Positions 817 through 29,401 of a stretch of DNA of 64,000 bases are shown here, piece after piece. The DNA lies in the NCBI GenBank assembly GCA_018396995.1, contig JAGTQB010000001.1, forward strand, positions 67,584 through 131,583, written 5' to 3'. The stretch comes from Candidatus Bathyarchaeota archaeon. Its GTDB lineage: Archaea; Thermoproteota; Bathyarchaeia; Bathyarchaeales; DTEX01. The first letter of the stretch is position 1. The number at the start of each line of letters is the position of its first letter. Both the position numbers and the translations under genes were made by a program. The notes under the pieces were generated by a model, which saw only the letters and a program-made list of their open reading frames with translations, was not told the DNA's origin and searched no databases.

Positions 817-1422
817 TTATTCTGTGAGACCTATCTCCTTATAGATTTTTATTTTATTTTCTTCAACTTTTTTGGAGACATCCATGAATAAGTTATTTCC
901 ATGCGAATCTATGGCGACGGTAAGTGGACCGAAGTTTTCAGCCTCAAAGATCCATAGCGCCTCTGGCACCCCTAAGTCAAGCCACTCGACACCCTTAACG
1001 CTTTTTATAGCCTTTGCGGCTAGGACTGCTGCTCCTCCGGTGAGGGCTGCGTAGACGGCCCCGTACTTAGCCATGGCTTCAGTGGTCCTCTTACCCATAC
1101 CTCCCTTTCCAATGATAACCCTAACCTTAAAGTTTTTTATGAACTCGTCTTCAAAGAGATCCATACGCGTGCTTGTGGTTGGCCCAGCTGCGACAACCAC
1201 CCATTTATCCCCCTCCTTCTTGACAACTGGACCGCAGTGGAAAATTGCAAGCCCTTCAAGGTTTATTGGTAGGGCTTTCCCCTCCCTAAGGTATTCTAGG
1301 GCTTTCCTATGGGCTTGGTCGCGTGCAGTCACTATTGTCCCAGTTATGTATATCGTATCGTTTACCCTGAGCTTCCTAACCTCCTCCTCTGATATTGGCG
1401 TCTTAAGGTAGTAGACTCCCAC
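817..1422 (-). CDS. Class I (Fe-S) fumarate hydratase / tartrate dehydratase, beta subunit
   Basis: 201 aa. HCGPVV, AAGPTTSTRMD and IGKGGMG blocks are typical of the hydro-lyase beta subunit. It lies directly downstream of the alpha subunit on the same strand. Confidence 0.85.
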   Translation of the reverse strand: MGVYYLKTPISEEEVRKLRVNDTIYITGTIVTARDQAHRKALEYLREGKALPINLEGLAIFHCGPVVKKEGDKWVVVAAGPTTSTRMDLFEDEFIKNFKVRVIIGKGGMGKRTTEAMAKYGAVYAALTGGAAVLAAKAIKSVKGVEWLDLGVPEALWIFEAENFGPLTVAIDSHGNNLFMDVSKKVEENKIKIYKEIGLTE

Positions 1423-1423
1423 T

Positions 1424-2308
1424 CTACTCCACCCCCCTATGCGTTAAATATTCAACACTTCCATCAGCATAAATCTTAGCCGAAGCTCTTCTAGCAGCCC
1501 AGCAGTTGAAGGCTACGGCGACGGGGAATGAAGCTGGATGCCTAAAGGCATAATCGATATGCACGCCTAAGACAGTTGTCCTCCCACCCAACCCCATTGG
1601 CCCAATGCCAAGCTTATTCGCAGCTTCATATAGTTCCCTCTCAAGTTTACTTAGGTTTGGGTCTGGGTTAGGTGTGTTAAGTGGTCTTAATAGAGCCTTT
1701 TTGGCGAGCTTTATGGCTATATCTACTCCACCCCCCATCCCCACACCCACTATTGTTGGGGGGCATGGTTGAGCTCCAGCCTCAACAATGGTTTCAATGA
1801 CAAACTTCTTTACACCTTTTATTCCTTCACCAGGAGGAATTGCCTTGGCGATGCACATGTTCTCTGAACCCCCTCCCTTCGGCATAACGGTTATTTCTAA
1901 TGTGTTTCCTGGAGCTATCTCCCAATTTATGTAGGGTATGAACCTCCCAGTGTTGTCGCCACTGTTCTTTTGGGTGAAAGGATCTACAGAGTTCGGCCTT
2001 AATGGGACTTCCTCAGTGGCCCTTCTCGTGGCGTTTATTAATGCTCTCTCAATTTTGTCCAAATCCTTAAACTCCGCGCCAGCGGTAATGTAGAAGAGGA
2101 TTGTGCCAGTATCTTGACATACTGGGTATCGATATTTCTCCGCGAGCTCTATGTTATCGAGGATAGCCCTCAACTGAGTCTTTGCAGCTTCACTAGTTTC
2201 CTCTTCATAAGCCTTCTTTAAGGAGGCCTTAACATCCTCCGGCAGATATATTACAGCTTGCCTTATAAGATTGAAGGCAACCTCCTCAACTACATCCACT
2301 ATGCCCAA
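1424..2308 (-). CDS. Class I (Fe-S) fumarate hydratase / tartrate dehydratase, alpha subunit
   Basis: 294 aa. The PVCQDTG motif, MPKGGGSEN and GVGMGG blocks are typical of the Fe-S hydro-lyase alpha chain. It abuts the beta subunit gene. Confidence 0.85.
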
Positions 2309-2444: not shown

Positions 2445-3830
2445 TTGGAGGAGCTCGTATTGGAGAAAGAGAAGTTAAGTGTTGAAGAGCTTTTGGCCAA
2501 GGCTAAAAAACCTTCCTTGCTCGCACCGCCCTTACACAGATTCTATGAGGGGAAGGTTCAGGTTATGCCGAAGTGCGCCATAACGAGCTTCGAGGACTTT
2601 GCAATATGGTATACGCCGGGCGTAGCTGCGCCATGCAGGGAGATCCAGGCGAATCCAGATAAATCATTTGAACTGACAAACCGCTGGAATTATGTTGCAG
2701 TTGTCTCAGATGGGACGAGAGTTCTCGGGCTTGGGGATATAGGGCCTGAGGCAGCCCTCCCAGTTATGGAGGGTAAAGCGCTTTTATTCAAATATCTTGG
2801 CGGAGTAGATGCATTTCCACTATGCCTTAAGACCAAGGATCCAGAGGAGCTTGTTAGGGCGCTAGAGCTTATAGAACCAACCTTCGGCGGAATAAACCTT
2901 GAGGATATTGAGAAGCCAAAGTGCTTTTATGTCCTGGAGAAGGCTAGGGAGCGCCTACAGATCCCAGTCTGGCATGATGATCAGCAAGGGACCGCCACCG
3001 TGATATTGGCTGGCTTAATAAATGCCTTTAAAGTTGTTGGCAAAAACATGAAAGAAAGCCTCATAACTCTCATAGGCGCTGGAGCTGCAAACATCCGAAC
3101 CGCATACGTCTTGATAAGGTGGGGGGTAAAGCCTGGAAACATCATAATGGTGGATTCAAAGGGCATATTATATCCGGGCAGGGAGGATATAAAGAAGGAG
3201 GACGACCCATGGAAGTATGAACTCACTCAGATAACGAATGCTGAGGGTAGGGTTGGCGGTATACCCGAAGCTATGAAGGGGGTGGATGCAATCGTAGGCT
3301 GCTCAAAGCCCGGTCCAGGGGTGATTAAAAAGGAGTGGATAAAGATGATGGCAGATAACCCAATAGTCTTCGCATGCGCGAATCCAATACCGGAGATATG
3401 GCCGTGGGAGGCTAAGGAGGCTGGAGCCAAAATTGTCGCAACTGGCAGGAGCGATTTTCCGAACCAAGTGAATAATAGCCTAGGTTTTCCGGGAATATTC
3501 CGCGGCGTCTTAGATGTTAGGGCGAAGACGATAACTGATGACATGTGCATAGCGGCTGCTGAGGAGCTAGCTAGGTTTGCTGAGGAGAGAGGGATACATG
3601 AAGATAACATTTTGCCAACAATGGAGGAGTGGGAGGTTTATCCGAGAGAGGCTGTTTCATGCGCCCTAAAGTCCATTGAGCAGGGTGTGGCAAGGATAAA
3701 GCTCAGCAGACAGGAGTTATATGAGAGGGCTGTGGCGATTATAAAGAATGCGAGGGAGAGCCTAGAAGCATTGATGAGACATGGGCTAATAAAGAGGCCG
3801 CCACCTGAAGAGGAGCTATTAAAGAAGTAG
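2445..3830 (+). CDS. NAD(P)-dependent malic enzyme
   Basis: 461 aa with a TTG start. It has VVSDGTRVLGLGDIG, LEDI..P.CF, the GAGAA Rossmann motif and FANPIPEI, matching the short prokaryotic malic enzyme layout. Confidence 0.9.
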   Translation: MEELVLEKEKLSVEELLAKAKKPSLLAPPLHRFYEGKVQVMPKCAITSFEDFAIWYTPGVAAPCREIQANPDKSFELTNRWNYVAVVSDGTRVLGLGDIGPEAALPVMEGKALLFKYLGGVDAFPLCLKTKDPEELVRALELIEPTFGGINLEDIEKPKCFYVLEKARERLQIPVWHDDQQGTATVILAGLINAFKVVGKNMKESLITLIGAGAANIRTAYVLIRWGVKPGNIIMVDSKGILYPGREDIKKEDDPWKYELTQITNAEGRVGGIPEAMKGVDAIVGCSKPGPGVIKKEWIKMMADNPIVFACANPIPEIWPWEAKEAGAKIVATGRSDFPNQVNNSLGFPGIFRGVLDVRAKTITDDMCIAAAEELARFAEERGIHEDNILPTMEEWEVYPREAVSCALKSIEQGVARIKLSRQELYERAVAIIKNARESLEALMRHGLIKRPPPEEELLKK

Positions 3831-3869: not shown

Positions 3870-4982
3870 TCATGTTAAGGTCAATGCGAGCAGCTCAGCA
3901 ATATCCATAACCCTAATTTTCTCTTCATTCCCAGTTGTCTTTACAGCATCCTCCATAGTGAGTAGACAAAAGGGACACGCCACCGCTAAAATCTCCGCTC
4001 CAGCCTCAACAGCCTCCTTAACTCTAATCTCTGCTAAGCGGGGTCCAGGGACATCAACCCACATTCTCCCACCACCCCCCTCACAGCATACACTTCTACT
4101 CCTTGAGCGGCTAAACTCCAGGAGCTTAACACCATTTATGCTTTCGATAACCTTTCGGGGCTCCTCAAAAATATTGTTCCGCTTGCCAAGGTAACATGGA
4201 TCATGGTAAATGACCACTTTATTAAGACTCTTTGCGGGAGAGATTTTCCCATTATCTATTAATTTTGCGAGGAACTGGGAGTGATGCCATACTTCTAAGT
4301 CCCTCTGCTTATACCTATTTTTGAAAGTGTCGAAGCCGTGCGGGCAATTAACTATGATCTGTCTAATCTCATACTTGTCAAACAGTTTTATGTTCTCCTC
4401 CATAAGATACTCAAAGAGACCCTTCTCACCCATACAATAGACTTCAGAGCCACAGCAATTCTCCTCCCCGCCAAGTATCCCAAAATCAATGTTTGCTAAG
4501 TTTAAGCATGCTACAAGGCTTCTTGCCACATTCTGAACCCTTGTATCATAGGATGTCGTGCACCCAACGTGGTAGAGTATATTAGCTCCCTGAGAAAAAT
4601 GCTTAACATTTAAATCTCGGCACCACTCAACGCGCTTTCCGCGTATTCTTCCCCACGGGTTTCCATTCATATACACGCTTTCTAGGGCATCCCTAATCGT
4701 CGGCGATACTTCCCCACTCTCAATAACAATGCTCCTAACGTCTATCAGGAACTCATATGGCTTCAACTGCCTCGGGCAGCGAATGCCGCATGTGGAGCAT
4801 GTTGTGCAGCTCCATAATTCGTTTGGTGGATGAATGGCGAGTCTGCCTAGGACGGAGACTTCACGCATATATTTCCTAACATTGAGACTTGTTTTCTTAG
4901 CGACTGGGCAACTTCCAGTACAGGTGCCACACTGAATACATTCTAGAAGACTATTCTTCTGAATAATTTCATGAAGGTTCAT
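3870..4982 (-). CDS. HdrD/GlcF/TfrB-like Fe-S oxidoreductase (two ferredoxin motifs plus two CCG domains)
   Basis: 370 aa. It has CIQCGTCTGSCP and CTTCSTCGIRCP cluster motifs, then two cysteine-rich CCG-type repeats (ENCCGSE...; SVCCEGGGG...CPFC). No obvious TM segments. Confidence 0.8.
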   Translation of the reverse strand: MNLHEIIQKNSLLECIQCGTCTGSCPVAKKTSLNVRKYMREVSVLGRLAIHPPNELWSCTTCSTCGIRCPRQLKPYEFLIDVRSIVIESGEVSPTIRDALESVYMNGNPWGRIRGKRVEWCRDLNVKHFSQGANILYHVGCTTSYDTRVQNVARSLVACLNLANIDFGILGGEENCCGSEVYCMGEKGLFEYLMEENIKLFDKYEIRQIIVNCPHGFDTFKNRYKQRDLEVWHHSQFLAKLIDNGKISPAKSLNKVVIYHDPCYLGKRNNIFEEPRKVIESINGVKLLEFSRSRSRSVCCEGGGGRMWVDVPGPRLAEIRVKEAVEAGAEILAVACPFCLLTMEDAVKTTGNEEKIRVMDIAELLALTLT

Positions 4983-5062
4983 CTATTACCCCATGATGAG
5001 GATTTAAGAATTAAAAGTTGTAAAAATTTAAAAAGCTTCTGGCTGAGGCGGAATATAGGGAA

Positions 5063-6232
5063 CTACTTTTCCCTTATAAGTAGTGTAATGAACCCACATA
5101 GCACATTGGGCAAGACTATGGAGTAAAATAATGCATGGTCAATTGTTAATGGGGTTATTAAAGCCCCTGAAATGACTGGACCGACAGCTCCCCCAAAGAG
5201 CCCCAGTGTTTGTGTTAGGCCTGTAGCCGCCGAGATATTCTTCCCTGGAACAGCCTCCTGAACAATCGTCACCAATAGACTTCTATGTGGAGATATGAAT
5301 ATTCCAAGTAGAACTACGCAGATCGCGGATATAAGTGAATGGTTTATTAGGAGGGCAGCTGCAGCCACCACCGCGGCGGCCATACTAACATAAAATGTCG
5401 TCTTTCTCCTTCCAATTCTCTCAGAGATTCTCCCAAATACTGGAGGGCTCATTGCACCACCGATGAAGAAGAGTCCCAGGATTAGGCTTAATTCGATCGG
5501 ACCAATGCTCCTTGAGAGGAGCAGAGATGGGAGCCAGGCGGTTGTAGAGAAGTAGCCGAAGCTGCCCAGAAAAATGCTGGTACATGAGATCAAAATATTC
5601 TTCATTTTAAGCAGACTGAAGAATGTTGTAGGCTTTTCCTCAATTGACGGGGGAGAGTGTACCAACGGGATCTGTATGAGAAGGGCTATTATCTCAAGAA
5701 CCCCCATTATAATGAATGGGGTTCTCCAATTCCCAAGAGCTACAAAGGCGCCTACTAGATAAGACCCCATAAGCCCACCTATTTGATAGCTTGCTAGACC
5801 AAGCCCCACCCCAAACCCCCTGACATTCCTGAGCAGCTCACCCATAAGCGAATAATAGCTCGGAATTATCATGCTGGAACCCACGCCAGCCATCGTCAAC
5901 GAGACGACTAGCAGAGGATAATTTGGCGAAGAGCTGAAGGATAAGACCCCTGCGGCGAGAAGCAAGTAGCCCAATATTAGCACCCTCTTCCTGCCGATTC
6001 GGTCCGCCATTAACCCGGATGGCGTTAACAGAATGGCGCTTGATAAAAGGTTAATCGAGTATAGGATCCCCGCCTGAAACTCGCTTATCCTCATCTCCGA
6101 AATAATGCTTGGAAGGGCCATGCCAATACTCAATCTAAACATGGAGAAAGAGAGGTAGCTTAAGAAGAGGACAAGAACTGTCCTCTCATCAACACTATTT
6201 CTCCTCATATACGCGGTTGACGAAGTCTTCAT
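5063..6232 (-). CDS. MFS-type transporter
   Basis: 389 aa, about 12 hydrophobic segments. It carries the MFS loop signature G.MADRIGRKRVL between TM2 and TM3. Confidence 0.8.
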   Translation of the reverse strand: MKTSSTAYMRRNSVDERTVLVLFLSYLSFSMFRLSIGMALPSIISEMRISEFQAGILYSINLLSSAILLTPSGLMADRIGRKRVLILGYLLLAAGVLSFSSSPNYPLLVVSLTMAGVGSSMIIPSYYSLMGELLRNVRGFGVGLGLASYQIGGLMGSYLVGAFVALGNWRTPFIIMGVLEIIALLIQIPLVHSPPSIEEKPTTFFSLLKMKNILISCTSIFLGSFGYFSTTAWLPSLLLSRSIGPIELSLILGLFFIGGAMSPPVFGRISERIGRRKTTFYVSMAAAVVAAAALLINHSLISAICVVLLGIFISPHRSLLVTIVQEAVPGKNISAATGLTQTLGLFGGAVGPVISGALITPLTIDHALFYSIVLPNVLCGFITLLIREK

Positions 6233-6303
6233 ACCCCATCAATTTAAGGGTGAGTAATGAAAATTATTGTCAAGGTTAAGTATATTATTTCAACGCTAAC
6301 CGA

Positions 6304-7188
6304 CTATAAACGGATTTTCTGTAGGCTGGTCACATAATTTTTTATGGAATTAACGTATAGTTCCTCACGCATGTATTCAGGCGAAATTAATTTTTCTAGG
6401 ATGGAAAGCCACGTCTTCGATGCAATTCTATCATAAAGTATGCCCTTTATCTTTACATCTATAGCTTTTTCTGGGCAAACCTCCCTACAAGCTCCGCAGT
6501 AAATGCAAAACTGCTCCTCAAGTTTGATATTGCCTCCCCTATCTAGGTATAAGGCTTTACTGGGGCATATCTCTACACATGCTTGACAACCTTTTGGACA
6601 ACGTTTCACATCTAATTGGAGCAGTCCTTGAAATGGCTTTGCAACAAATATTGCTCCTTGTGGACAGGCATACTCACACCTCCCACAGAAAATACATTTG
6701 CCACGATCCACCTGAACACTCAATATCCTTATTATCCTTCCATCCTTTTCCTCGGCTTTGATGCTTACAGCTTCAACTGGGCAGCTCTCTTTACAAGCAA
6801 GATCGCATGTGGGACTACACTTCCTCACATCAACGGTGACGTCTCTCAGAATATTCGGGAGCACTTCCTTTTCAACCGCCGGATTATACAATTCCCCATT
6901 TCTAGAAAGTCTTATCGCGTTTACTGGGCATAAATTAACGCAAACAGCGCAAAATGTGCATTCATTTATATTAATTGAAATTCCTCCCCTTTTTAAGAGC
7001 CTACCTTCATGCACCACAGCACTAAGGAGCTTTAGCGCCTCTTTATAGCATGCTTTTACACAGATGCCACAGCCGATACAACGCTTCTTATCAATCACCA
7101 GCTCGTCACATAAGCCTAACATCGTCCTTCTAGCAATAGTACATTCTTCCGATTCCAGTCTCCTCACTACTCTCCGCGCCATACCCAT
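6304..7188 (-). CDS. Polyferredoxin (six [4Fe-4S]-type motifs)
   Basis: 294 aa with six Cys-cluster motifs: CIGCGICVKAC, CTFCAVCVNLCP, CSPTCDLACKESCP, CIFCGRCEYACP, CPKGCQACVEICP, CIYCGACREVCP. Confidence 0.8.
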   Translation of the reverse strand: MGMARRVVRRLESEECTIARRTMLGLCDELVIDKKRCIGCGICVKACYKEALKLLSAVVHEGRLLKRGGISININECTFCAVCVNLCPVNAIRLSRNGELYNPAVEKEVLPNILRDVTVDVRKCSPTCDLACKESCPVEAVSIKAEEKDGRIIRILSVQVDRGKCIFCGRCEYACPQGAIFVAKPFQGLLQLDVKRCPKGCQACVEICPSKALYLDRGGNIKLEEQFCIYCGACREVCPEKAIDVKIKGILYDRIASKTWLSILEKLISPEYMREELYVNSIKNYVTSLQKIRL

Positions 7189-7322
7189 AATCGTTATTTC
7201 AAGAAATAATTATATTTTTCTTTCCGCTCCTCTAATATTTTATCTAAATTGTGGTGATGGAAAAGGCTGGGTGATGGTGGAGGGCGAGTTTTCTGGGAGG
7301 AGCCAATGCTGAGGGAGTTAGG

Positions 7323-9272
7323 ATAGGCGTATATGTATGCCACTGCGGTGTAAATATTGCTGGTGTAATTAATGTAAAGAAAGTTACTGAGTACGCACGT
7401 AATCTCCCAAACGTTATTATAGCCAAGGATCACCTATACCTCTGTTCAGATGCAGGTCAAGCGCTAATTAAGCAGGATATAAAAGAGTATGGGTTAAACC
7501 GCGTGGTTGTCGCCGCCTGCTCACCAAATCTTCACGAACAAACTTTTCGCAAGTGTATAGAAGATGCTGGGTTAAATAAATACCTGCTTGCCATGGCAAA
7601 CATTAGAGAACACTGCTCATGGGTGCATGAAAGCTGGCCTAAAGAGGCGACTGAGAAGGCTATTGATGCTGTTAGGATGGCTGTGGCCCGCGCCAACCTG
7701 CTTGAGCCCCTAGAAACAATTAAAGTCCCCGTTAAGAGAAGTTGCCTAGTGATTGGCGGGGGGATAGCTGGTATCCAAGCAGCTTTAGACCTCGCGAATG
7801 AAGGATTTGATGTTTACTTAGTTGAGAAGGAGCCAAGCATCGGGGGCCTCATGGCAAAATTTGATAAAACTTTCCCAACAATGGATTGCTCAATGTGCAT
7901 ATTATCCCCAAAGATGGCTGAGGTAATGCACCACCCAAAGATCCACCTCTTAACAAATGCTGAAGTCAAGACGGTTTCAGGCTTCATCGGTAATTTTAAA
8001 GTTGAGATCGAGATAAAACCACGGTATATTATAAGCGAAATCTGCAATGGTTGTGGGGAGTGCGTTAAAGTATGTCCTATTGAGGTTCCAAGCGAATTTG
8101 ATGAGAGACTTGGGCCTAGAAAAGCTATATTCGTCCCATTTCCCCAAGCCGTTCCCCTAATCTACATTATTGACATCGAAAATTGCATTAAATGTTACAA
8201 ATGTGTTGACGCTTGCGTGCAAGCGCGCGGGGCTAAAGCAATAGATTTTGCTCAGGAGCCAAAGAGGATGGAGATTGAAGTTGGGACAATAATTGTGGCA
8301 ACTGGATGCAGCACATTTGACCCATCGATTTTAGAGGAATATGGTTATGGCACCTATGAAAACGTGGTTACCGCGCTAGAGTTTGAGAGAATCCTAGCCC
8401 CAACTGGGCCGACCAGGGGCGTGATTTTAAGGCCCTCGGATGGAAGGATCCCGAAGCGTATCGCGTTCGTCCAATGTGTTGGATCTAGGGATAAGAGGAC
8501 GAATATTTACTGTTCAAGGGTCTGCTGTATGTATGCCACAAAGCAGGCTCTGTTAATCAAGGAGAGAATCCCAGACGCTAAGGTGACGATCTTTTACATT
8601 GATATGAGAGCCTTTGGGAAGGGGTTTGAAGAGTTTTATGCTAGGGCTCAGAGTGAAGGAGTATACTATATTAGAGGTAAGGTTGCAGAAATCATTGAAG
8701 ATCCAGGCACTAAAAATTTGAAGCTAGTTGCTGAGGACACCTTGTCCGGGGAGGTAATTGAGACTGAAGCAGACTTAGTGATTTTATCTATTGGGCTTAT
8801 TCCGTCAGCGTCGACGAAAGATTTGCGTGAAAGGATAGGTTTGTTGGTTGGACCTGACGGCTTCTTTAAGGAGGCGCATCCAAAACTAAGGCCTGTTGAC
8901 ACGATTGTCGATGGAATATTTATTGCGGGGGCTGCTCAGGGTCCAAAAGATATCTCGGACAGCGTCGCCCAAGCCAGTGCTGCAGCACAGAGAGCGAGCA
9001 TCCTCATGTCTACCGGAGAATTTGAGACGGAAGCAATAACCGCTAGAGTTAATGGCGATTTATGTAGTGGCTGCCTAATATGTGTTTCCATGTGCCCATT
9101 CAATGCGTTGGTTGTCGAGGGTAAGAACGTAAATGTTAACCAAATTCTTTGTAAGGGTTGTGGGGCCTGCGCTGCAGCATGCCCAGCTAAAGCCATAGAA
9201 ATAATGCATTTCAAAGATCAGCAAATCCTCGTTGAAATTAAGGCTCTTTTGGAAAATGTATCAAGGTTATAG
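7323..9272 (+). CDS. hdrA: Heterodisulfide reductase subunit A-like flavoprotein (HdrA, methanogen-type with N-terminal Cys domain); the start codon is unresolved
   Basis: The ORF track starts at GTG 7503, but the same frame is open from 7275. That upstream stretch encodes RIGVYVCHCGVNIAG...VVAACSPNLHE, the conserved HdrA N-terminal domain. It continues with the FAD fold VIGGGIAGIQAALDLA, an inserted ferredoxin domain (CNGCGECVKVCP, CIKCYKCVDAC) and a C-terminal 2x[4Fe-4S] (CSGCLICVSMCP, CKGCGACAAACP). The 5' end is placed at ATA 7323 only provisionally; the alternatives are CTG 7293 or a frameshift from ATG 7274. Confidence 0.85.
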   Translation: MGVYVCHCGVNIAGVINVKKVTEYARNLPNVIIAKDHLYLCSDAGQALIKQDIKEYGLNRVVVAACSPNLHEQTFRKCIEDAGLNKYLLAMANIREHCSWVHESWPKEATEKAIDAVRMAVARANLLEPLETIKVPVKRSCLVIGGGIAGIQAALDLANEGFDVYLVEKEPSIGGLMAKFDKTFPTMDCSMCILSPKMAEVMHHPKIHLLTNAEVKTVSGFIGNFKVEIEIKPRYIISEICNGCGECVKVCPIEVPSEFDERLGPRKAIFVPFPQAVPLIYIIDIENCIKCYKCVDACVQARGAKAIDFAQEPKRMEIEVGTIIVATGCSTFDPSILEEYGYGTYENVVTALEFERILAPTGPTRGVILRPSDGRIPKRIAFVQCVGSRDKRTNIYCSRVCCMYATKQALLIKERIPDAKVTIFYIDMRAFGKGFEEFYARAQSEGVYYIRGKVAEIIEDPGTKNLKLVAEDTLSGEVIETEADLVILSIGLIPSASTKDLRERIGLLVGPDGFFKEAHPKLRPVDTIVDGIFIAGAAQGPKDISDSVAQASAAAQRASILMSTGEFETEAITARVNGDLCSGCLICVSMCPFNALVVEGKNVNVNQILCKGCGACAAACPAKAIEIMHFKDQQILVEIKALLENVSRL

Positions 9273-9278
9273 AGAAAT

Positions 9279-9962
9279 TTATGTATGAGCCGCGCGCTTA
9301 AGAGGATACTTTTTGTCCATTTCCATATATTTCCAATAAAACTTCCTTATATGCTGGTCAACCCCCTCAAATAGGGAGGCTACATCTCTCGCCTTAAGGA
9401 TGGATAATAGTTTCTCTACTTTCATTAAGAGCTGCTCTATCGACGTTTTCCACATGCTCTCAGCTTCATCTTCAGAGACAAGGGATAGCGCCTCCGCAGG
9501 GCACAATTCTATACACCTGGGTTCCCCATTACATAGATCACATATTAGGGCCAGCGGTCTATCCGGATGTAGCGTAATTGCGCCGTAGGGACAGGCCATC
9601 GCGCACCACCCACATCGATCACACTTATCCTGGTCGCAAGAGATTAAGCCTACCTCATTTTGGAAGAGAGCATTCCTCGGACATGCCTTAACGCAGGGAG
9701 CGTTCTCACAGAATCTACAAGCTGTGACAACATTGAAGAAAGGCAAAATCCTCACCACATGGATTCTTGAGCGGAGTGGGCTAAGGGAATCCTCGCCTTT
9801 CTCTAGGACGCAAATAAGCTCACATAAACCACACCCAATACATTTACTTGGATCCACACCCACAAATTTCCTTGCACTTCCCTTAACATTAACGCCGCTG
9901 GACATTAAGTGTGGCACCCCATTTAAATCTGGAATAAGTTTGTTTTTGTTAGATTTCTCCAC
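9279..9962 (-). CDS. Four-cluster ferredoxin-like protein (DmsB/HybA-type 4Fe-4S subunit)
   Basis: 227 aa with four motifs: CIGCGLCELIC, CRFCENAPCVKACP, CDRCGWCAMACP, CDLCNGEPRCIELCP. It lies downstream of etfBA on the same strand. The start may be the internal Met at 9905. Confidence 0.75.
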   Translation of the reverse strand: MEKSNKNKLIPDLNGVPHLMSSGVNVKGSARKFVGVDPSKCIGCGLCELICVLEKGEDSLSPLRSRIHVVRILPFFNVVTACRFCENAPCVKACPRNALFQNEVGLISCDQDKCDRCGWCAMACPYGAITLHPDRPLALICDLCNGEPRCIELCPAEALSLVSEDEAESMWKTSIEQLLMKVEKLLSILKARDVASLFEGVDQHIRKFYWKYMEMDKKYPLKRAAHT

Positions 9963-9997
9963 CGCATAAAAGTAACCACTGTTAGAGCCAATTTATT

Positions 9998-10987
9998 TCA
10001 TTCCTTTCTAGCCCTTACCTCATCAATTTTCATTTTAAGCACTGGTATTATCTTGAATAAGTCTTCGACAACGCCATAATCTGAATAACCAAAGATGGGG
10101 GCTTTCGGATCCTTATTCACTGATATTACTAGCTCTGAGCCCCTCATCCCCAGAATATGTTGGAAAGAGCCGCTGATTCCAAGAGCAAGATATAGCTTTG
10201 GCTTAACAGTTTTCCCAGAGATCCCGACCTGTCGGTCACTTGGAAGCCAACCCTTATCCACAATTGGACGTGTGCAGGCTAGTACCCCACCCAACGATTT
10301 AGCCAGATCCTCGACTAACGGAATGTTACTTTTATCTTTTATTCCCCTTCCGATGGATACTATGATGTCAGCGGCAGTTATATCCACTCCCCCCGGCGGC
10401 GGTGGAACATACTTTATGAAGCGCTTCCTCAACACTACTCTTTCCATGGGAATTGATAACTCCTCTATTCTTCCACCCAATGGTGGAGAGGGCTTCTGGA
10501 CCATGAAGCTCCCCTGTCTCACAGTAACCATGTAGCTCTCGGACCTGCGGACCACAGCCCTAACATTAACCTTTCCACCATACATTTGCCGCGTAACTAT
10601 GAGTGAGTTGTTTTCAAAAGTTATGTCTATGCAGTCTGTGGCCAATGGAATATTTAGAGAAGCTGCTAGTCTAGGGGCGAGTTCAATGCCGTAAGATGTG
10701 TGCCCAATCAACGTTAATAATGGCTTTAGCTCCCTAATTACACGTGAAAGAACCTCCTGGTATAAGTCGGAATTAAAATGCTCAAATAATGGATTCTCAA
10801 CTAACAAAACTCTATTTGAATATTCTGCTAAAGTTGGTGCAAAACTTTTAACATCTTTACCCAGTACAATTGATATAACTTCGGCGCCAAGTTTACTGGA
10901 GAGATTAATGGCTTTAGTGAGCATCTCAAAGGTTATGTCTCTTAGCTGGCCCCCTCGATGCTCCGCCAAGACAAGTATTTCCACCAT
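9998..10987 (-). CDS. etfA: Electron transfer flavoprotein alpha subunit (EtfA/FixB)
   Basis: 329 aa. The C-terminal FAD-binding block is VSIGRG...RPIVD.GW....QVG.SGK.V.PKLYLALGISG..QH..G. It has a 1-nt TAATG overlap with etfB. Confidence 0.9.
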   Translation of the reverse strand: MVEILVLAEHRGGQLRDITFEMLTKAINLSSKLGAEVISIVLGKDVKSFAPTLAEYSNRVLLVENPLFEHFNSDLYQEVLSRVIRELKPLLTLIGHTSYGIELAPRLAASLNIPLATDCIDITFENNSLIVTRQMYGGKVNVRAVVRRSESYMVTVRQGSFMVQKPSPPLGGRIEELSIPMERVVLRKRFIKYVPPPPGGVDITAADIIVSIGRGIKDKSNIPLVEDLAKSLGGVLACTRPIVDKGWLPSDRQVGISGKTVKPKLYLALGISGSFQHILGMRGSELVISVNKDPKAPIFGYSDYGVVEDLFKIIPVLKMKIDEVRARKE

Positions 10988-11784
10988 TAAATTAATCCCC
11001 TCCTCCTTAAAATCTCAACTATCCTTGAGGCTACTTCATTCGGGCTCCCGCTAATAAACTCAACCTTCTTTTCAGCTGGCGGGGTAAACATTTCCTTAAC
11101 TCTTATCCATGAACCCGTCTCACTAACATCTTCTTCGCTTAGGCCTAAGTCCATAAGAGATAAAACCTTTATCTCCTTTTGCATAGCCCTTCGAATAGCC
11201 ATTATAGAGACATATCTCGGCTCATTTATCCCAGTTTGAATCGTGAATAACGCTGGCAGATCAACCTCAAGAACCTCCTCAAACCCTCCCTCAAGCTCGC
11301 GATTCACGATAGCTTTCCCATCCCTAAACTCTATCCTCTTAATCATTGTGGCGTGTGGGATTCCAAGCATCTCAGCGAGAACAGGCCCAACAAGAGCACT
11401 TTCATCATCACTAGCCTGCACCCCAGTTAATATTAGATCAAAGCGCATACCCTTAATAACATTATAGAGTATCTTAGCTATCGCGTAGGCATCCGAACCA
11501 GAAATTTTAGGGTCAGTCACACGGATCGCCCTATCTGCACCACGGGCCAGGCATTTGCGCAGTGTGCTATCAGCATCTTCGGGGCCAACGGTGATAACAG
11601 TAATAGTCCCGCCAAACTTCTCCTTGATACGCACAGCCTCTTCGATAGCATATTCATCCCACTCATTTATGTCGAAAACCAAGCCTTGCTTCTCTATATC
11701 CCTACCACTAGCATCTATTCTTATCTCGGCCTCCGCAGTCTCTGGAACATGCTTAACACAAACAATAATATCCAAGCAAACCAT
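10987..11784 (-). CDS. etfB: Electron transfer flavoprotein beta subunit (EtfB/FixA)
   Basis: 265 aa. It has IIVCVKHVPE at the N-terminus, the NEWDEYAIEEA block and LILTG.QASDD, typical of EtfB. Confidence 0.9.
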   Translation of the reverse strand: MVCLDIIVCVKHVPETAEAEIRIDASGRDIEKQGLVFDINEWDEYAIEEAVRIKEKFGGTITVITVGPEDADSTLRKCLARGADRAIRVTDPKISGSDAYAIAKILYNVIKGMRFDLILTGVQASDDESALVGPVLAEMLGIPHATMIKRIEFRDGKAIVNRELEGGFEEVLEVDLPALFTIQTGINEPRYVSIMAIRRAMQKEIKVLSLMDLGLSEEDVSETGSWIRVKEMFTPPAEKKVEFISGSPNEVASRIVEILRRRGLI

Positions 11785-11937
11785 CTCTTTAAACTAGTTT
11801 AACTTAAGAATAACGTTAACGTCTTATCTAGTTTTCGGAGTGAAGCAGCATATAACAAGCCCTTTCGCAATCATCGCAGACATGAAAATGATTTAGAGAG
11901 GGCGTCAAGTGGTGGCATAAAATACTTAAATTGGTTC

Positions 11938-12030
11938 CGCAATATATAATGATGGTGACCTGCCGTCTGCTGAGATCATGATGAGTGGCACGAGCTGCTT
12001 GAGGGCACAGCCCCGATGAGAGACGGCAGT
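11938..12030 (+). ncRNA. Candidate small structured RNA with box C/D-like (K-turn) motifs; not a canonical C/D sRNA
   Basis: It lies in a 269-nt non-coding spacer. The motif order is ATGATGG (11949-55), 14 nt, CTGA (11970-73), gatc, ATGATGA (11978-84), 13 nt, then CTTGA (an imperfect D box). A 9-bp helix pairs CTGCCGTCT 11960-68 with AGACGGCAG 12021-29, bracketing CTGA and GATGAG. An A/T-rich element (cataaaatac, 11905-14) lies about 25 nt upstream. Confidence 0.25.
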
Positions 12031-12053
12031 CCCTCCTGCATACCGTCTGTTGT

Positions 12054-13268
12054 TTAAGAGAATTTAAGAAGCGCTCTACGATATGTTGCTAAAGTTAAGA
12101 TGGATTCAAGTTTATCGCCTTCCTGCTTCCCTTTAAGAGTAACCCTTATACTATCGTTTGTGACTTCAACGCTTGCATATTGAACCCCTAAGTATTCTAG
12201 CAGGTCCTCGATATCACTGGCTTCAATGGGCTCTGGCTTCACATTAGTATTGCATGGACCCATGTTACACATGGCGCAGTACCTTCCATGCGTGTAAACA
12301 TTTGCTTCACATGCGGTCCTGAAGACAATGAAACCCATGTCCTCAGCAATAAGTTTGATCCTCCTCTTAAAATCTGATAATCTAATCTCGATTTGCTCAG
12401 AGCCCTTAATCGGCCCAGTTAATCTCCTCCTAATCTCACCCACATTAGCCCCATAACGCTCTAGATTCCTTAGAATTCTCTCGGTTACTCTCAATGAGCC
12501 GAGAACAATTGATTTTAAGCCGCTTTCAGCAGCTAAGCTAAGTATTTTCTCAGCCTCAACATCTGTTATTCCTGGAATTATCGGCCTCATAAAGAGGGAG
12601 ACTGATAAGCCGGCCCTTGAGGCCTCCCCAGCGGACTTAATTCTCTCCATCGGATCAGGAGCCCTTGGCTCAACACTTCTGTTAGATATAGTTACCACCG
12701 TAACGAGGACGCTTGTCCTCGGGTCTCCTGATGAAATGCCCTTTGAAATATTCTCTGTTAGAATGGCTTTTGTCGATACTTGTGTTGGAAGTCTTAACCA
12801 CATGTATATCTCCCTCATGTAGCTTAGAGCCTGCGTCGCTGTCTCACGGAGGAATGGTTCTGTAACTGAGCCATATGCTGCCAGCGTTTTCTCCGGGATA
12901 ACATATGGATTTAATGCTAACGCATATGTCATCTCCTCTGGCTTTAGCGGGTATGGTCTTGTCCTCGCTGGAAAGCCCATGTCGTAGATGTAACAGTATG
13001 CGCAGATGTAGCTGCAGCCCACGCCAGTATGTATTGTTATGCCGCACGGCCTCGGCCTCCTCCTTGAGTGGTGGTCGGAACTGGCAGCTAGCTTAGACTT
13101 ATCATCAAGCAGTCTCTCTAGTCTAGATAGAACCGTCTTCTTATAATTGAATAGGTTAACTAAACGCGTCAAATGATATTCTCCATAGAAATATTTGGGG
13201 GAAGAAGGATAAATAGTGCTAGCTAATGTAGCTTCACGAACTTTAACACGGCTACATGGGCGAAACAA
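12054..13268 (-). CDS. Radical SAM protein, SplB/COG1533-like (DNA-photolyase-like family)
   Basis: 404 aa. It has GVGCSYICAYCY (Cx3Cx2C with the CxYCY flavour of the SplB-like family) and a C-terminal Cys patch, CEANVYTHGRYCAMCNMGPC. The TTG start at 13268 is uncertain. Confidence 0.65.
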   Translation of the reverse strand: MFRPCSRVKVREATLASTIYPSSPKYFYGEYHLTRLVNLFNYKKTVLSRLERLLDDKSKLAASSDHHSRRRPRPCGITIHTGVGCSYICAYCYIYDMGFPARTRPYPLKPEEMTYALALNPYVIPEKTLAAYGSVTEPFLRETATQALSYMREIYMWLRLPTQVSTKAILTENISKGISSGDPRTSVLVTVVTISNRSVEPRAPDPMERIKSAGEASRAGLSVSLFMRPIIPGITDVEAEKILSLAAESGLKSIVLGSLRVTERILRNLERYGANVGEIRRRLTGPIKGSEQIEIRLSDFKRRIKLIAEDMGFIVFRTACEANVYTHGRYCAMCNMGPCNTNVKPEPIEASDIEDLLEYLGVQYASVEVTNDSIRVTLKGKQEGDKLESILTLATYRRALLKFS

Positions 13269-13452
13269 GAACCTTGATACGCGTTCATATCCAACATGAA
13301 AATTCTTCCGATAACAGCGGTTGTTATGCTATGGAAAAAATCATTCAACTCTTATCCTCTTTTCCGTTTGTCCGCTTATACGCTTCTATCTAATGTTTAC
13401 AACTGTTTCAGCGGCATTTTCCTGAGAATTGCATATAAGTTAGTGTGTTGAG

Positions 13453-13460
13453 TATAAAAA
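13453..13460 (+). promoter_or_regulatory. Putative TATA box for leaderless htpX
   Basis: tataaaaa is centred about 23-26 nt upstream of ATG 13479, which is the archaeal TATA-to-TSS spacing. Confidence 0.4.
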
Positions 13461-13478
13461 TTTTTGGTGTAGTGGTTT

Positions 13479-14759
13479 ATGCTTCGTGAAGCCATCTTGA
13501 TGACTGCTTTAACAGCGCTTCTTGTGTTAGTTGGCTATGTTGTCGGCCTGTTCCTCGGGAACCCTACAACTGCCATTCAAGTAGCGCTTATCTCGGCAGC
13601 CATAATGAATATAGCGGTTTACATCTTCTCCGATAGGATTGTTCTTGCAATGACTGGCGCTAAACTTATATCGCCATCCGATGAGCCCCAATTACACCAA
13701 ACTATTGAACGATTAGCTAGGGAGGCTAGGATACCTAAGCCTAGGGTTGCAATAGTTCCAGTAGATCTACCAAACGCATTTGCTACTGGGAGGGGGCCGG
13801 GGAGGGCGGTTGTTGCTGTAACTAGGGGTTTACTACGCGAGCTTAATAGTGATGAGGTTGAGGCGGTTCTAGGGCATGAGATATCCCATATAAGGCATAG
13901 GGATACTTTAGTGGCAACAATGGCTGCAACCATTGCTGGCGCCATAAGTTACATAGCCTATATGGGTAGGTGGGGTCTCTGGCTCGGGGACGGTAGGAGG
14001 AGTGAGGTAAATCAACTATTACTCCTCCTCGCAGTAATCTTTGCGCCAATAGCTGCCACAATGATTCAGCTAGCGATATCGAGGGAGCGGGAGTATGAAG
14101 CTGATGAGGGAAGCGCAATGATAACTAAGAAGCCAATAAGCCTTGCTAATGCACTAATAAAGATTGAAAGGGCTGTGCGTAGGAGGCCAATGGTGGATGC
14201 AAATCCAGCGACAAGCCCACTCTGGATAGTTAACCCATTTCGCGGAGAGACACTAATGGAGCTTTTCTCAACCCACCCGCCAACCCGCAAGAGGATTGAG
14301 AGACTTAGGAAAATAGCTCGGGAGATGGGGGTGAATGACGCACCCCTCCTAGAGTATACTGAAGAGCCCATAAAGACTCGGGTAGAGCGGGTGGAGACCG
14401 GGACTTCTATAAGAGTGCACCCTTATGCCCAGTTAAGGGCGGTGGCCACACTTAATTCCGGGCTCGTCCTGAAAGACTTCGATGAGGTTGAGAGGGCTAT
14501 TCTGGTTTCATTATATAGGGGCGGTGATATGAGCCACTCGGCGCTTCCAAAAGTTCTAGCAAAAAGCTTCGGGATACACCTATCTCTGCGCGAGGTTGAA
14601 GAAGCCATAGATAGGCTTTCAGCCAAGGGACTTATCTCTTTGAGGAGCGTTTTCACAGCGTACATCTTTGGGACAGAATACACACGCATGACTATAGGTT
14701 TAACACCATTAGGGAGGAGTATAGCTCGTAAGCTGGCTGGAGAGACTCGGGGAGACTGA
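13479..14759 (+). CDS. htpX: HtpX-family M48 zinc metalloprotease with a C-terminal winged-helix-like extension
   Basis: 426 aa. It has N-terminal TM segments, HEISHIRHRD (HExxH, 13875-13889), the downstream EYEADEGSA and STHPP..KR. About 130 extra C-terminal residues (...ERAILVSLYRGGDMSHSALPKVLAKSFGIHLSLREVEEAIDRLSAKGLISL...) resemble a MarR-like wHTH. Confidence 0.85.
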   Translation: MLREAILMTALTALLVLVGYVVGLFLGNPTTAIQVALISAAIMNIAVYIFSDRIVLAMTGAKLISPSDEPQLHQTIERLAREARIPKPRVAIVPVDLPNAFATGRGPGRAVVAVTRGLLRELNSDEVEAVLGHEISHIRHRDTLVATMAATIAGAISYIAYMGRWGLWLGDGRRSEVNQLLLLLAVIFAPIAATMIQLAISREREYEADEGSAMITKKPISLANALIKIERAVRRRPMVDANPATSPLWIVNPFRGETLMELFSTHPPTRKRIERLRKIAREMGVNDAPLLEYTEEPIKTRVERVETGTSIRVHPYAQLRAVATLNSGLVLKDFDEVERAILVSLYRGGDMSHSALPKVLAKSFGIHLSLREVEEAIDRLSAKGLISLRSVFTAYIFGTEYTRMTIGLTPLGRSIARKLAGETRGD

Positions 14760-14850
14760 TTCTTCTGGGGAGAGGTAGACGTCAAGCTTATATGGATTCT
14801 TAAGAAATCAAAGCATTGGGTTTCATTAAATTGGATGCTGGAAGAAGCTG

Positions 14851-15633
14851 ATGGCTATGGTTAGCTTAAGTGGAGCCTTCAGGAAGAGGGTGCTCATGGT
14901 GTATTTAACGGCGGGCGACCCATATGTAGATAGTTGGGTTATAGAGACCTTATCCGAGCATGGGGTTGACATCTTTGAGTTCGGCATACCGACGGCTAGA
15001 CCTAAATATGATGGATTAACTATTAAGGCGAGCTATAGGAGGGCTATTGAAAGCGGAGTAACACTGGAGAAGAGCTTCCAGTTTATAGAGGGTTTTAGGC
15101 TGAGGCATAAGGTGGTTCTAACATACTTTGAGTATGCTAGGAGCATAGGTTTAGAGAGACTTATGAGCTATGCCCTAAACGCCGGAGCTGAGGGGGTCTT
15201 ACTTCCAGATCTATTAATAGACTACTCCGAGGATGCAGATGTATATGTGAGGCTATGCAAGCAGTATGGCTTCGAACCAATTTTCTTCATAACAAGCTCC
15301 TTCCCTTATAAACTCATCTCCGAAGTCGCCCGCCTAAACCCAGCATTCATCTACATGGGTTTAATGGCTTCGACTGGAACCCTCCTACCAATAACCATAA
15401 GCAGAAACATTAGCATAATAAAGAGTCTCATAAACAATACACCACTACTCACGGGCTTCGCAATAAGCGAGCCGAAGCAAGTTCTGGAGTGCATTAGGGC
15501 TGGGGCCGATGGTGTCGTAATTGGGAGCGCCATAATAAGGCTTATAAGCGGGGGTGGAGAGAAGCAGCATATCAAAGAGGAATTAAGGAACTATATTAGC
15601 AGCATAAAGGAGGCGCTGGAGGCCCCGGTATGA
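14851..15633 (+). CDS. trpA: Tryptophan synthase alpha chain-like protein (divergent)
   Basis: 260 aa with YLTAGDP, FEFGIP and C-terminal GFAIS / VIGSAI phosphate-binding blocks. The SDP Asp of canonical TrpA reads ARP here (Arg codon 14998-15000). Confidence 0.75.
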   Translation: MAMVSLSGAFRKRVLMVYLTAGDPYVDSWVIETLSEHGVDIFEFGIPTARPKYDGLTIKASYRRAIESGVTLEKSFQFIEGFRLRHKVVLTYFEYARSIGLERLMSYALNAGAEGVLLPDLLIDYSEDADVYVRLCKQYGFEPIFFITSSFPYKLISEVARLNPAFIYMGLMASTGTLLPITISRNISIIKSLINNTPLLTGFAISEPKQVLECIRAGADGVVIGSAIIRLISGGGEKQHIKEELRNYISSIKEALEAPV

Positions 15634-16904: not shown

Positions 16905-17115
16905 ATTTATTGAATCCCCTTAAACCCGAAATCTATTTTTGAGTAGATAATGGAGAAAAGATTACTTGGTAGACGGGAACATTTTTATTCTCTAAGAGTG
17001 TTTTACTATGACTTGGTTATTTTAGATAAAAGTGAGAATAGAAAAGCAAATATTGTTGCGTGAAGCATTTTCCTTAGAAGTCTTAACACAATCTGTGTTC
17101 TAGTGGGGGAATTTT

Positions 17116-18411: not shown

Positions 18412-18441
18412 TTACTCTCTGCTTTATTAGGAGAAATAGTT

Positions 18442-21206: not shown

Positions 21207-21238
21207 ACCACCACAAAAAACAAATACTTCGCTTAAGG

Positions 21239-21249
21239 AAATATATAAA
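21239..21249. promoter_or_regulatory. Putative shared TATA element between divergent glycerate kinase and radical SAM genes
   Basis: aaatatataaa sits in the 67-nt spacer. It is about 25 nt upstream of TTG 21274 (near-leaderless) and about 35 nt from ATG 21206 on the other strand. Confidence 0.4.
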
Positions 21250-21273
21250 GTTAAGTGGCTGGTGGATCTTTTA

Positions 21274-26463: not shown

Positions 26464-26578
26464 ACATTACTCCCAAAAAGATAGTTTCAGAAAATAACCT
26501 GTTAAATTTTTTTCTTAATTCCAAAATATTAGAAAGATTTAAGATATCTCAAATTTTCTTGTAGTTAGGAGAACTATT

Positions 26579-27826: not shown

Positions 27827-27919
27827 ATTATTCCAAAAATTCTCCCTTTATGAAATCTGAGAGAAAGGGTAATAGGTTTGCTACTTATTATTAAAATTAA
27901 TGAAAAGTGTGTTGGCTGA

Positions 27920-29086: not shown

Positions 29087-29111
29087 CTTTGTGCGGGATA
29101 AATTTTCAAGA

Positions 29112-29348: not shown

Positions 29349-29401
29349 CTGATTAGATCTACCCTTCAACAATCCTTATTTTACTGTTAGCATAAGGGAT
29401 A

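Follow-up and report, generated by a model that had tools for sequence, protein, structure and literature searches.

How an anaerobe without a respiratory quinone chain handles the electrons of electron transfer flavoproteins (Etf), which lie at approximately 0 mV, is the thermodynamic problem of the syntrophic fatty-acid oxidizers, and it is raised again by a locus from a Candidatus Bathyarchaeota archaeon (contig JAGTQB010000001.1). The Bathyarchaeia rank among the most abundant archaea of anoxic sediments and hot springs, and what is understood of their energy metabolism has been inferred almost wholly from genomes. In the stretch of 64,000 nucleotides analyzed here (the window), etfB, etfA, and a four-cluster ferredoxin gene lie beside genes for the flavoprotein HdrA, a polyferredoxin, a transporter of the MFS family, and a soluble iron–sulfur protein with two CCG domains (the CCG protein), and none of the usual Etf partner enzymes (Bcd/Acd, Ldh/GlcD, CarC, or FixCX) adjoins etfBA in the window. 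What, then, would exchange electrons with this Etf? The comparisons made here show this redox island to be a rearranged, lineage-specific version of a neighborhood that is widespread in the Bathyarchaeia and Nezhaarchaeota. The reading preferred here, tentatively and with somewhat less than even confidence, is that the HdrA/CCG pair of this neighborhood couples Etf electrons to ferredoxin. Such a coupling would probably be quinone-free.

The association of Etf, HdrA, and the CCG protein is kept in many genomes of these two groups. A first sample, anchored on EtfB, included 80 species genomes (Bathyarchaeia, Nezhaarchaeota, and one other metagenome-assembled genome, or MAG, of the Thermoproteota) with an EtfB identity of 63–83%, and the loci were mapped by tblastn with the window proteins and the reference proteins of relatives. 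Where the flanks were full, that is, at least 9 kb upstream and at least 6 kb downstream (43 loci), HdrA and a CCG orthologue (62–86% identity) were found within 10 kb in 21 cases. A second set, sampled independently and anchored on the CCG gene, included 80 metagenome contigs with a CCG identity of 69–84%, and, where the upstream sequence was long enough to judge, a divergent hdrA lay within 400 bp of the CCG gene in all but two loci (67 of 69). The long-flank loci of this set (n = 37) contained etfBA in 25 cases, an acyl-CoA dehydrogenase gene (acd) in 20, and a set of thioredoxin reductase (TrxR), MvhD-polyferredoxin, and NfnAB-like genes in 26. A CCG gene 62–86% identical to that of the window is paired with hdrA-mvhD in more than 100 loci. 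By a rough estimate, the chance co-location of two given genes within ±10 kb in a genome of approximately 2 Mb would be about 1%. The conservation of the neighborhood had been set beforehand as a check on the initial annotation of the island, and it holds in both samples.

The gene order is variable, with HdrA on either side of etfBA and in either orientation, and with at least four different orders. A gap of only 11–31 bp separates hdrA from a co-directional etfB in 11 loci, where hdrA, etfB, and etfA look operonic. The persistence of this grouping despite rearrangement, together with the operon-like spacing, is the strongest sign of a functional link. In the reference locus, L025, identified by Pfam and NCBIfam scans, the CCG gene is followed on its own strand by the thioredoxin reductase, MvhD-polyferredoxin, NfnA-like, and NfnB-like genes, and diverges from a series formed by HdrA-MvhD, EtfB, EtfA, and Acd, in which the HdrA-MvhD protein has 782 aa and carries the MvhD domain PF02662. 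In this locus, the Etf-linked CCG gene is directly followed by the thioredoxin reductase gene (5048–5995), which has an equivalent in approximately 40 loci (L099–L175), and then come the MvhD-domain polyferredoxin and a NfnAB/SudAB-like pair, in a conserved five-gene unit.

The window departs from this pattern in that its HdrA is a swapped-in paralogue. The locus was found, by exact-protein look-up, in Ca. Bathyarchaeia MAGs from hot springs, with the same gene order in five independent assemblies (approximately 99.8–99.9% DNA identity). Its nearest non-conspecific relatives, L094–L096 (80% identity in EtfB and 84% in the CCG protein), are syntenic with the window and have the order EtfB > EtfA > < HdrA-MvhD > MFS > CCG < malic enzyme > FumA > FumB > SdhA-like > TfrB-like, with a fragmented MFS gene in the place equivalent to that of the window in L094 and L095; the window lacks the SdhA/TfrB-like pair. 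The HdrA of these relatives is 80% identical to the Etf-linked HdrA-MvhD of L025, but only 48% identical to that of the window, while the HdrA, polyferredoxin, and four-cluster ferredoxin of the window are 80%, 62%, and 65% identical, respectively, to those of an L007-type cluster (in L007 and L008, a polyFd gene divergent from HdrA-CCG_1-Fd4-TrxR-MvhD-polyFd-NfnAB-like). A different HdrA thus now occupies the same slot: in the window lineage, a type-I HdrA cassette, together with a polyferredoxin and Fd4, has replaced the HdrA-MvhD gene between etfBA and the MFS-CCG pair. The copy in the window is thus a derived form, and possibly an impaired one, of a conserved cluster that is more regular elsewhere.

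HdrA is well documented in modules with a range of partners. The divergent pair of polyferredoxin and type-I hdrA genes also occurs in L007, L009, L177, and L178, the two genes being separated in the last of these by AOR and a ferredoxin gene. Pairs of type-I HdrA and CCG_1 adjoin POR (L010), AOR and a four-cluster ferredoxin (L177 and L178), or etfBA and Acd (L176), and type-I HdrA meets Etf independently of the window, as HdrA-CCG> <EtfA<EtfB >Acd in L176 and EtfB>EtfA>HdrA in L082. Given that the partners vary among loci (POR, AOR, and etfBA), the HdrA/CCG pair is a modular hub, and Etf is one recurrent partner.

The absence of both FixC and a dehydrogenase from the vicinity of etfBA, on which the initial annotation had based much of the unusual character of the island, holds for the window, where no FixC-like flavoprotein turned up in the Pfam scans, but not as a general trait, given that acyl-CoA dehydrogenase is present in 38 of the 43 full-flank etfBA loci, mostly directly downstream of etfA. 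The missing dehydrogenase is limited to the small clade that contains the window EtfB in the neighbor-joining tree (L011, L012, and L091–L096), in which etfA is not followed by Acd in any locus with a sufficient flank, and Hdr-type genes adjoin Etf in L091 and L094–L096. In L091, whose EtfB is 83% identical to that of the window, the region at 11825–20789 has etfBA beside two molybdopterin oxidoreductases, HdrB-like and HdrC-like proteins, a four-cluster ferredoxin, a methyltransferase, and HdrA-MvhD, so that the Hdr genes near the Etf of this clade come in yet another, third arrangement.

In the initial annotation, HdrA was considered to sit where FixC is normally found. The sequence comparisons suggest that the CCG protein, rather than HdrA, is more plausibly the functional stand-in for FixCX or ETF-QO, as its best structural match is EtfD. 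In the PDB, its best sequence match is M. smegmatis EtfD (9OJN_A, 190 bits, residues 404–743), with 70 bits to HdrC (at the N-terminus) and 25 bits to HdrB, and the best Foldseek match is also 9OJN (E = 5.8e-19, TMq 0.62, 32% identity), followed by LutA and HdrB. This fold match is supported by the CCG half only, because the ferredoxin domain of the AlphaFold2 model (residues 1–87) has a pLDDT of <50. The protein has an HdrC-like 2x[4Fe-4S] domain and two CCG domains, and is, by its sequence, a fused HdrC and HdrB; it opens directly with the ferredoxin domain, and nothing in it aligns to residues 1–300 of EtfD. The first CCG domain reads C..CCG..CPHG, with four cysteines, in the window protein, and C..CTG..CPHC in EtfD, while the second motif is complete in both. 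Given the gene neighborhood, the CCG protein may accept electrons from reduced EtfAB. Among 128 CCG proteins aligned from the loci, the third cysteine motif of the first domain is CPHG in the Etf-linked group and SPHC in the type-I-HdrA-linked CCG_1 and the TfrB-like groups, and mycobacterial EtfD has CPHC. Each archaeal group keeps four cysteines in this domain, although these are a different four in each case.

The best PDB match of EtfB is the beta subunit of the Methylophilus W3A1 ETF (1O94_C, 206 bits), ahead of the bifurcating EtfBs (CarD 158 bits, Thermotoga 142, Acidaminococcus 139, C. difficile 138, and LctB 122) and the human and Paracoccus EtfBs (108–114 bits). In the W3A1 ETF, AMP takes the place of a second FAD (cited in PMC11110160), and this ETF has been termed non-bifurcating (PMC5691135). 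When judged against four solved bifurcating EtfBs in printed alignments, the window EtfB lacks the three blocks that these proteins have in common. The first, NPxD, is NEWD in both the window and W3A1; the second, GADT(W/L)AT, is GSDAYAIA in the window and GSDAIVVG in W3A1; and the third, G(R/K)QA(I/V)DGDT(A/G)QVG, is GVQASDDESALVG in the window, with DDES in the place of DGDT. The window protein does keep VPET, which is near the VPDT found in the bifurcating proteins. Across 119 related EtfBs, VPET and the first two blocks, as they stand in the window, are conserved, and the third block is more variable. A second bifurcating flavin is doubtful, then, because EtfB is nearest the AMP-type W3A1 ETF and lacks the three bifurcating blocks, and the window Etf is probably, if not by a wide measure, non-bifurcating; a W3A1-like EtfB would fit a simple shuttle role. 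EtfA, for its part, scores slightly higher against the bifurcating LctC (7QH2_A, 212 bits) than against the W3A1 alpha subunit (182 bits).

The identification of a methanogen-type HdrA is borne out over its full length, with residues 3–648 aligning to residues 12–654 of M. marburgensis HdrA (8RVU_a, 870 bits). The architecture is complete, with the cysteine-rich N-terminus, the TrxR-like FAD domain, and the inserted and C-terminal ferredoxin domains (Pfam Pyr_redox_2, and Fer4 at residues 174–240 and 515–568). The protein ends past the C-terminal ferredoxin domain, with no C-terminal MvhD/FlpD domain, and its match to the NCBIfam HdrA2 model ends at position 643 of 777, under the cut-off. Of the two flavoproteins that had been taken as capable of bifurcation, then, HdrA is of the canonical bifurcating type, and the Etf, with its W3A1-like EtfB, is doubtful.

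The start of hdrA is less regular than its domains. The gene called at 7503–9272 is present, but its start was probably placed too far downstream, since the frame runs upstream of GTG 7503, is open from 7275, and contains the conserved HdrA N-terminus VRIGVYVCHCG (VRIGVYVCHCGVNIAG) from approximately 7317. No ATG, GTG, or TTG is found in this frame between TGA 7272–74 and GTG 7503, and the NCBI start call in one conspecific MAG is CTG 7293. In the relatives, HdrA begins with an ATG and 16–20 variable residues, followed by VRIG, and in the window the frame that opens at the counterpart, ATG 7257, meets a TGA at codon 6 (7272–74). The intergenic region between the polyferredoxin gene and hdrA is identical in the five MAGs except for T/C at 7272, and codon 6 is TGA in four of the five and CGA in one. 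Either hdrA has a non-canonical start, or it is read through, or most of the population carries a copy that was disabled recently. A frameshift caused by sequencing error was ruled out by the same sequence being found in the five assemblies. Short overlapping ORFs (open reading frames) in other frames (ATG 7274 and ATG 7306) lie ahead of VRIGVYVCHCG, and the intergenic region at 7189–7292 has A/T-rich, TATA-like boxes.

Gene calls split hdrA in L003 and the CCG gene in L001, and a small mobile insertion was considered in each case. The extra 227 bp is an artefact of scaffold joins, however, in which a contig end of approximately 127–129 bp is duplicated around a gap of approximately 100 bp (at approximately 8630–8730 and 17325–17424 in L001, and 13080–13179 in L003), so that these splits are neither insertions nor pseudogenes.

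In the working proposed here, the invariant core would be the HdrA flavoprotein and the soluble CCG iron–sulfur protein of the HdrD/EtfD family, with EtfAB as a recurrent, often operonic partner, and with interchangeable additions, that is, Acd, the set of TrxR, MvhD-polyferredoxin, and NfnAB-like proteins, and an SdhA/TfrB-like fumarate reductase with fumarase. The CCG protein is predicted to dock on HdrA in the manner of HdrBC, forming the high-potential branch, and would exchange single electrons with EtfAB, as do bacterial EtfD, EMO, and HdrF, without a membrane or quinone part. The FAD of HdrA would then couple these electrons, at approximately 0 mV, to ferredoxin (the polyferredoxin and the four-cluster ferredoxin) and to a mid-potential carrier, which in the canonical clusters may be reached through MvhD and the NfnAB-like and TrxR proteins. 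Both directions of electron flow would be possible, either bifurcation, which would reduce Etf and enoyl-CoA or fumarate, or confurcation, which would re-oxidize Etf, and the overall chemistry would be like that of Bcd-Etf whichever way it ran, with HdrA providing the bifurcating flavin. In the window, neither the Etf-linked dehydrogenase nor the mid-potential module is encoded nearby.

A more specific form of this scheme is put forward as a speculative proposal, and is rated as unlikely. Soluble HdrA (usually HdrA-MvhD) and the EtfD-like CCG protein would together act as a quinone-independent Etf dehydrogenase/reductase in the Bathyarchaeia and Nezhaarchaeota, with the HdrA flavin confurcating two inputs, the Etf electrons released by acyl-CoA oxidation and those of reduced ferredoxin, to NAD(P)+ or a different mid-potential carrier, or, in reverse, driving the reduction of enoyl-CoA or fumarate while yielding reduced ferredoxin. 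If true, this would be a kind of bifurcating enzyme based on HdrA that has not been characterized before, and it would explain how fermentative archaea without a quinone chain re-oxidize Etf.

A number of observations weigh against the coupling of Etf electrons to ferredoxin by HdrA and the CCG protein. Approximately half of the etfBA loci have no HdrA or CCG gene within 10 kb, and approximately a third of the CCG/HdrA loci have no Etf. The redox genes of the window form three separate transcription units in three orientations, and neither a mid-potential donor module (MvhD, NfnAB-like proteins, or hydrogenase) nor an Etf-dependent dehydrogenase is found in the window. The hdrA gene itself may be impaired, because it has no canonical start and the ancestral frame carries TGA at codon 6 in four of the five MAGs. 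When CCG_1 and a TfrB-like protein were scored against 9OJN as controls, they reached 197 and 187 bits, respectively, and, because these paralogues that are not linked to Etf score alike, the likeness to EtfD reflects membership of the HdrD family (fused HdrC/HdrB) and not the binding of Etf, which weakens its value as a specific sign of this binding. The support for the coupling comes throughout from gene neighborhood and homology, and the presence of a bona fide thioredoxin reductase directly after the CCG gene in most relatives points to thiol/disulfide chemistry.

This chemistry is central to one alternative, which is considered improbable, in which HdrA and the CCG protein would form a disulfide reductase for a low-molecular-weight or protein thiol, and the thiol pool would be linked to a TfrAB-like thiol:fumarate reductase and to thioredoxin reductase, with the Etf lying nearby rather than acting as a direct partner of the CCG protein. 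The fumarase, malic enzyme, and MFS transporter that flank the CCG gene in the window would, by the same account, which is given the same low standing, feed C4-dicarboxylates to the thiol:fumarate reductase. The best NCBIfam hit of the CCG protein is TfrB (E = 6.7e-49, model positions 127–485, a score of 167 against a cut-off of 385), the “CC” pair characteristic of Hdr is retained in both of its CCG motifs, where EtfD has CTG in the first, and the gene that follows the CCG gene in most relatives is over the cut-off for thioredoxin-disulfide reductase (in L025, 363 bits against 343 for the TIGR01292 equivalog). The first CCG domain has only four cysteines (C..CC..CPHG), however, where HdrB has five, the hdrA–etfB gaps of 11–31 bp are left unexplained by this alternative, and no thiol of the CoM/CoB type is known in these archaea.

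The C4-dicarboxylate link noted in the initial annotation does recur, with fumarase and an SdhA/TfrB-like reductase beside the cluster in several lineages, which would also suit the thiol/disulfide account. The FumAB genes adjoin the Etf/HdrA/CCG cluster in L071, L080, L083, and L094–L097, and are accompanied by SdhA-like and TfrB-like genes in L071, L080, L083, and L096, while an SdhA-like gene, with or without a TfrB-like gene, also occurs in L084, L085, L148, and L175. Malic enzyme has a position equivalent to that of the window in L094–L097. The SdhA-like gene passes the cut-off for the Sdh/Frd flavoprotein, and the full-length TfrB-like gene scores 322 bits. This pair is absent from the window and from most loci, however, with the SdhA-like gene present in only two of the 37 full-flank CCG-anchored loci. 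A TfrA/SdhA gene to the left of the window fumarase, as in L096, was also sought and is absent, with an ABC-transporter ATPase after FumB instead.

A second alternative, likewise thought to have little probability, is that these genes are neighbors and nothing else. The EtfAB and the four-cluster ferredoxin would be self-contained, possibly bifurcating, and would serve dehydrogenases encoded elsewhere, while HdrA would work with other partners, the CCG protein and the MFS transporter would belong to C4-acid metabolism, and the clustering would reflect the shared regulation of anaerobic redox genes. The three transcription units of the window, the many etfBA loci that have neither HdrA nor the CCG gene, the acyl-CoA dehydrogenase that most etfBA loci possess of their own, as in the clostridial Bcd-Etf, and the type-I HdrA/CCG pairs found elsewhere with AOR, POR, or Nfn-like genes are all consistent with this account, as are the best scores of EtfA, which are against the bifurcating EtfAs, and the resemblance of VPET to VPDT in EtfB. 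On the other side, the association has outlasted many rearrangements and the replacement of a paralogue, the spacing of hdrA and etfB is operon-like in 11 loci, and the Etf clade of the window has no adjacent Acd where the flank suffices, while Hdr-type genes adjoin its Etf in L091 and L094–L096.

The weakest alternative, and a very improbable one, is that a two-FAD Etf and HdrA form two bifurcators in series, wired through the ferredoxins and the CCG protein, which would be favored by the canonical bifurcating type of HdrA, the abundance of ferredoxin-type wires (the six-cluster and four-cluster proteins), the tandem bifurcation modules reported for class II benzoyl-CoA reductase (bioRxiv 10.64898/2026.04.10.717634), and the tandem bifurcation proposed for clusters with two HdrAs (PMC12054007), but is opposed by an EtfB that is nearest the AMP-containing W3A1 ETF and, across the 119 related EtfBs, by the lack of the NPxD, GADT(W/L)AT, and DGDT blocks.

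The preferred coupling of Etf, HdrA, and the CCG protein may be compared with a number of known systems. EtfD is a membrane protein with five transmembrane helices, proposed to pass electrons from ETF to menaquinone, and its soluble part is homologous to HdrBC, with a linear [3Fe-4S] and a non-cubane [4Fe-4S] cluster (PMC13083937), while the genes of the membrane protein HdrF are clustered with etfBA in Desulfobacterium (PMC2702500). The window CCG protein shares with EtfD, as with the EMO/DUF224 proteins of syntrophs and HdrF, a soluble HdrC-like 2x[4Fe-4S] domain, two CCG domains, and the clustering of its gene with etfBA. Unlike these proteins, it has no N-terminal transmembrane or heme b part, with a length of 370 aa, and its genomic partner is the HdrA flavoprotein, rather than the quinone pool, as in EtfD.

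The island also resembles the methanogen HdrABC of the Mvh/Fdh-Hdr complexes, in the full-length match of its HdrA and in the correspondence of the CCG protein to a fusion of HdrC and HdrB, and the HdrA of the relatives, although not that of the window, has a fused MvhD domain, as in the HdrA2B2C2 of Methanosarcina. Unlike either of these systems, there are no separate hdrB or hdrC genes, and, in contrast with the methanogen Hdr, there is no hydrogenase, formate dehydrogenase, F420 module, or methanogenesis context, the partners being Etf, Acd, TrxR, and NfnAB-like proteins. In relation to the TfrAB of Methanothermobacter, the window CCG protein is 40% identical to the C-terminal two-thirds of the TfrB-like protein of L096, whose gene comes after an SdhA-like gene and fumarase, but it lacks the N-terminal SdhB-like [2Fe-2S] domain of TfrB, with the match beginning at model position 127, and no TfrA/SdhA gene lies in the window. 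The EtfAB proteins are homologues of those of Bcd-EtfAB, CarCDE, Ldh-EtfAB, and FixABCX/EtfABCX, and the relatives have the order etfB-etfA-acd. The ferredoxin beside etfBA calls to mind FixX, or the N-terminal ferredoxin domain present in CarE and LctC. In contrast with the bifurcating Etf complexes, however, the window has neither FixC nor a dehydrogenase, with an EtfB nearer the AMP-type W3A1, and, unlike a partner of the FixX type, the four-cluster ferredoxin travels elsewhere with type-I HdrA and AOR, rather than with Etf.

Each part belongs to a known family, and the combination of Etf, HdrA, and the CCG protein is a variant of the HdrA modules and of the Etf:EtfD system. In Bathyarchaeia, etfAB, hdrABC, hdrD, and glcD have been listed as ancestral genes, with no description of the cluster (PMC8407382), and a 2025 survey of HdrA gene clusters in methane-metabolizing archaea makes no mention of Etf (PMC12054007). 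The literature searched, the coverage of which is incomplete, has no description of an Etf-HdrA-CCG cluster in Bathyarchaeia, with only generic mentions of etfAB, hdrABC, and hdrD, in agreement with the view of the initial annotation that the arrangement is not a described complex. Public annotations of the cluster genes read only “(Fe-S)-binding protein” or “HdrA family protein”. The conserved, sometimes operonic linkage of etfBA, HdrA, and an HdrD/EtfD-type protein provides a concrete hypothesis for expression and purification, and a hub of HdrA and CCG proteins combined with Etf-Acd, AOR, POR, NfnAB-like/TrxR, and fumarate-reductase modules would widen the catalogue of HdrA-based systems.

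The genes of the window were identified by ORF listing, together with Pfam and NCBIfam scans (Table 1), and the seven genes of the island, as well as the fumarase and malic enzyme beside it, lie where the initial annotation had placed them.

Table 1. Features of the redox island and of the adjoining genes in the window.
Feature	Position	Strand	Basis
Class-I fumarase, beta subunit	817-1422	-	Pfam, NCBIfam
Class-I fumarase, alpha subunit	1424-2308	-	Pfam, NCBIfam
Malic enzyme, convergent with the CCG gene	2445-3830	+	Pfam malic + Malic_M
Soluble CCG protein of the HdrD/TfrB/EtfD family, 370 aa	3870-4982	-	Pfam Fer4 (Fer4_8) + CCG x2
MFS transporter, 389 aa, between the polyferredoxin and CCG genes	5063-6232	-	Pfam MFS_1, E = 1e-49
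Polyferredoxin, 294 aa, divergent from hdrA	6304-7188	-	Pfam, NCBIfam
Divergent intergenic region, polyferredoxin/hdrA	7189-7292	.	sequence
hdrA, type-I, methanogen-like, without MvhD domain	7293-9272 (first canonical start GTG 7503)	+	NCBIfam HdrA2, 862 bits
Fer4_11 (HydN/DmsB-type) ferredoxin, 227 aa, four cluster motifs	9279-9962	-	Pfam, NCBIfam
etfA, 329 aa	9998-10987	-	Pfam ETF + ETF_alpha
etfB, 265 aa	10987-11784	-	Pfam ETF, E = 6.5e-44

The start of etfA overlaps the stop of etfB, the four-cluster ferredoxin gene has the same direction as etfBA, and EtfA has no N-terminal ferredoxin domain. The polyferredoxin contains six [4Fe-4S] motifs (CxxCxxCxxxC), as counted by eye. Pfam scans of the larger ORFs, together with tblastn searches with the proteins of relatives (E<=1e-3), found no MvhD, separate HdrB or HdrC, acyl-CoA dehydrogenase, SdhA, TrxR, or NfnAB-like protein in the window, which agrees with the lack of hdrB/hdrC and mvhD noted earlier, and the sole tblastn match in the window to the HdrB-like and HdrC-like queries from L091 was the CCG gene itself (3870–4982). 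A tRNA scan of the window found none, and a scan for sigma-70 promoters and terminators, based on a model that is inapplicable to archaea, gave counts at the level of shuffled sequence.

The remainder of the window, as seen in Pfam scans of the larger ORFs, encodes unrelated housekeeping functions, such as radical SAM proteins, an M48 peptidase, TrpAB, ThiC/ThiDN, glycosyltransferases, ribosomal proteins, and an H+-PPase. A GH57 glycoside hydrolase, two GT4 glycosyltransferases, and a GalT-like nucleotidyl transferase at 24598–30463 likely form a glycan or compatible-solute cluster. An ORF of 585 aa at 55561–57318 (+), and two others, of 279 and 233 aa, at 22347–23186 (-) and 23320–24021 (-), matched no Pfam family at E<=1e-5 or 1e-6. 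For a glycerate-kinase-like gene (DUF4147/MOFRL, 19821–21314, -) and a radical SAM gene (21079–22338, +), the longest ORFs overlap by approximately 235 bp at their 5' ends, and the true starts of both genes lie further in, given that NCBI calls shorter products, of 461 and 354 aa, respectively.

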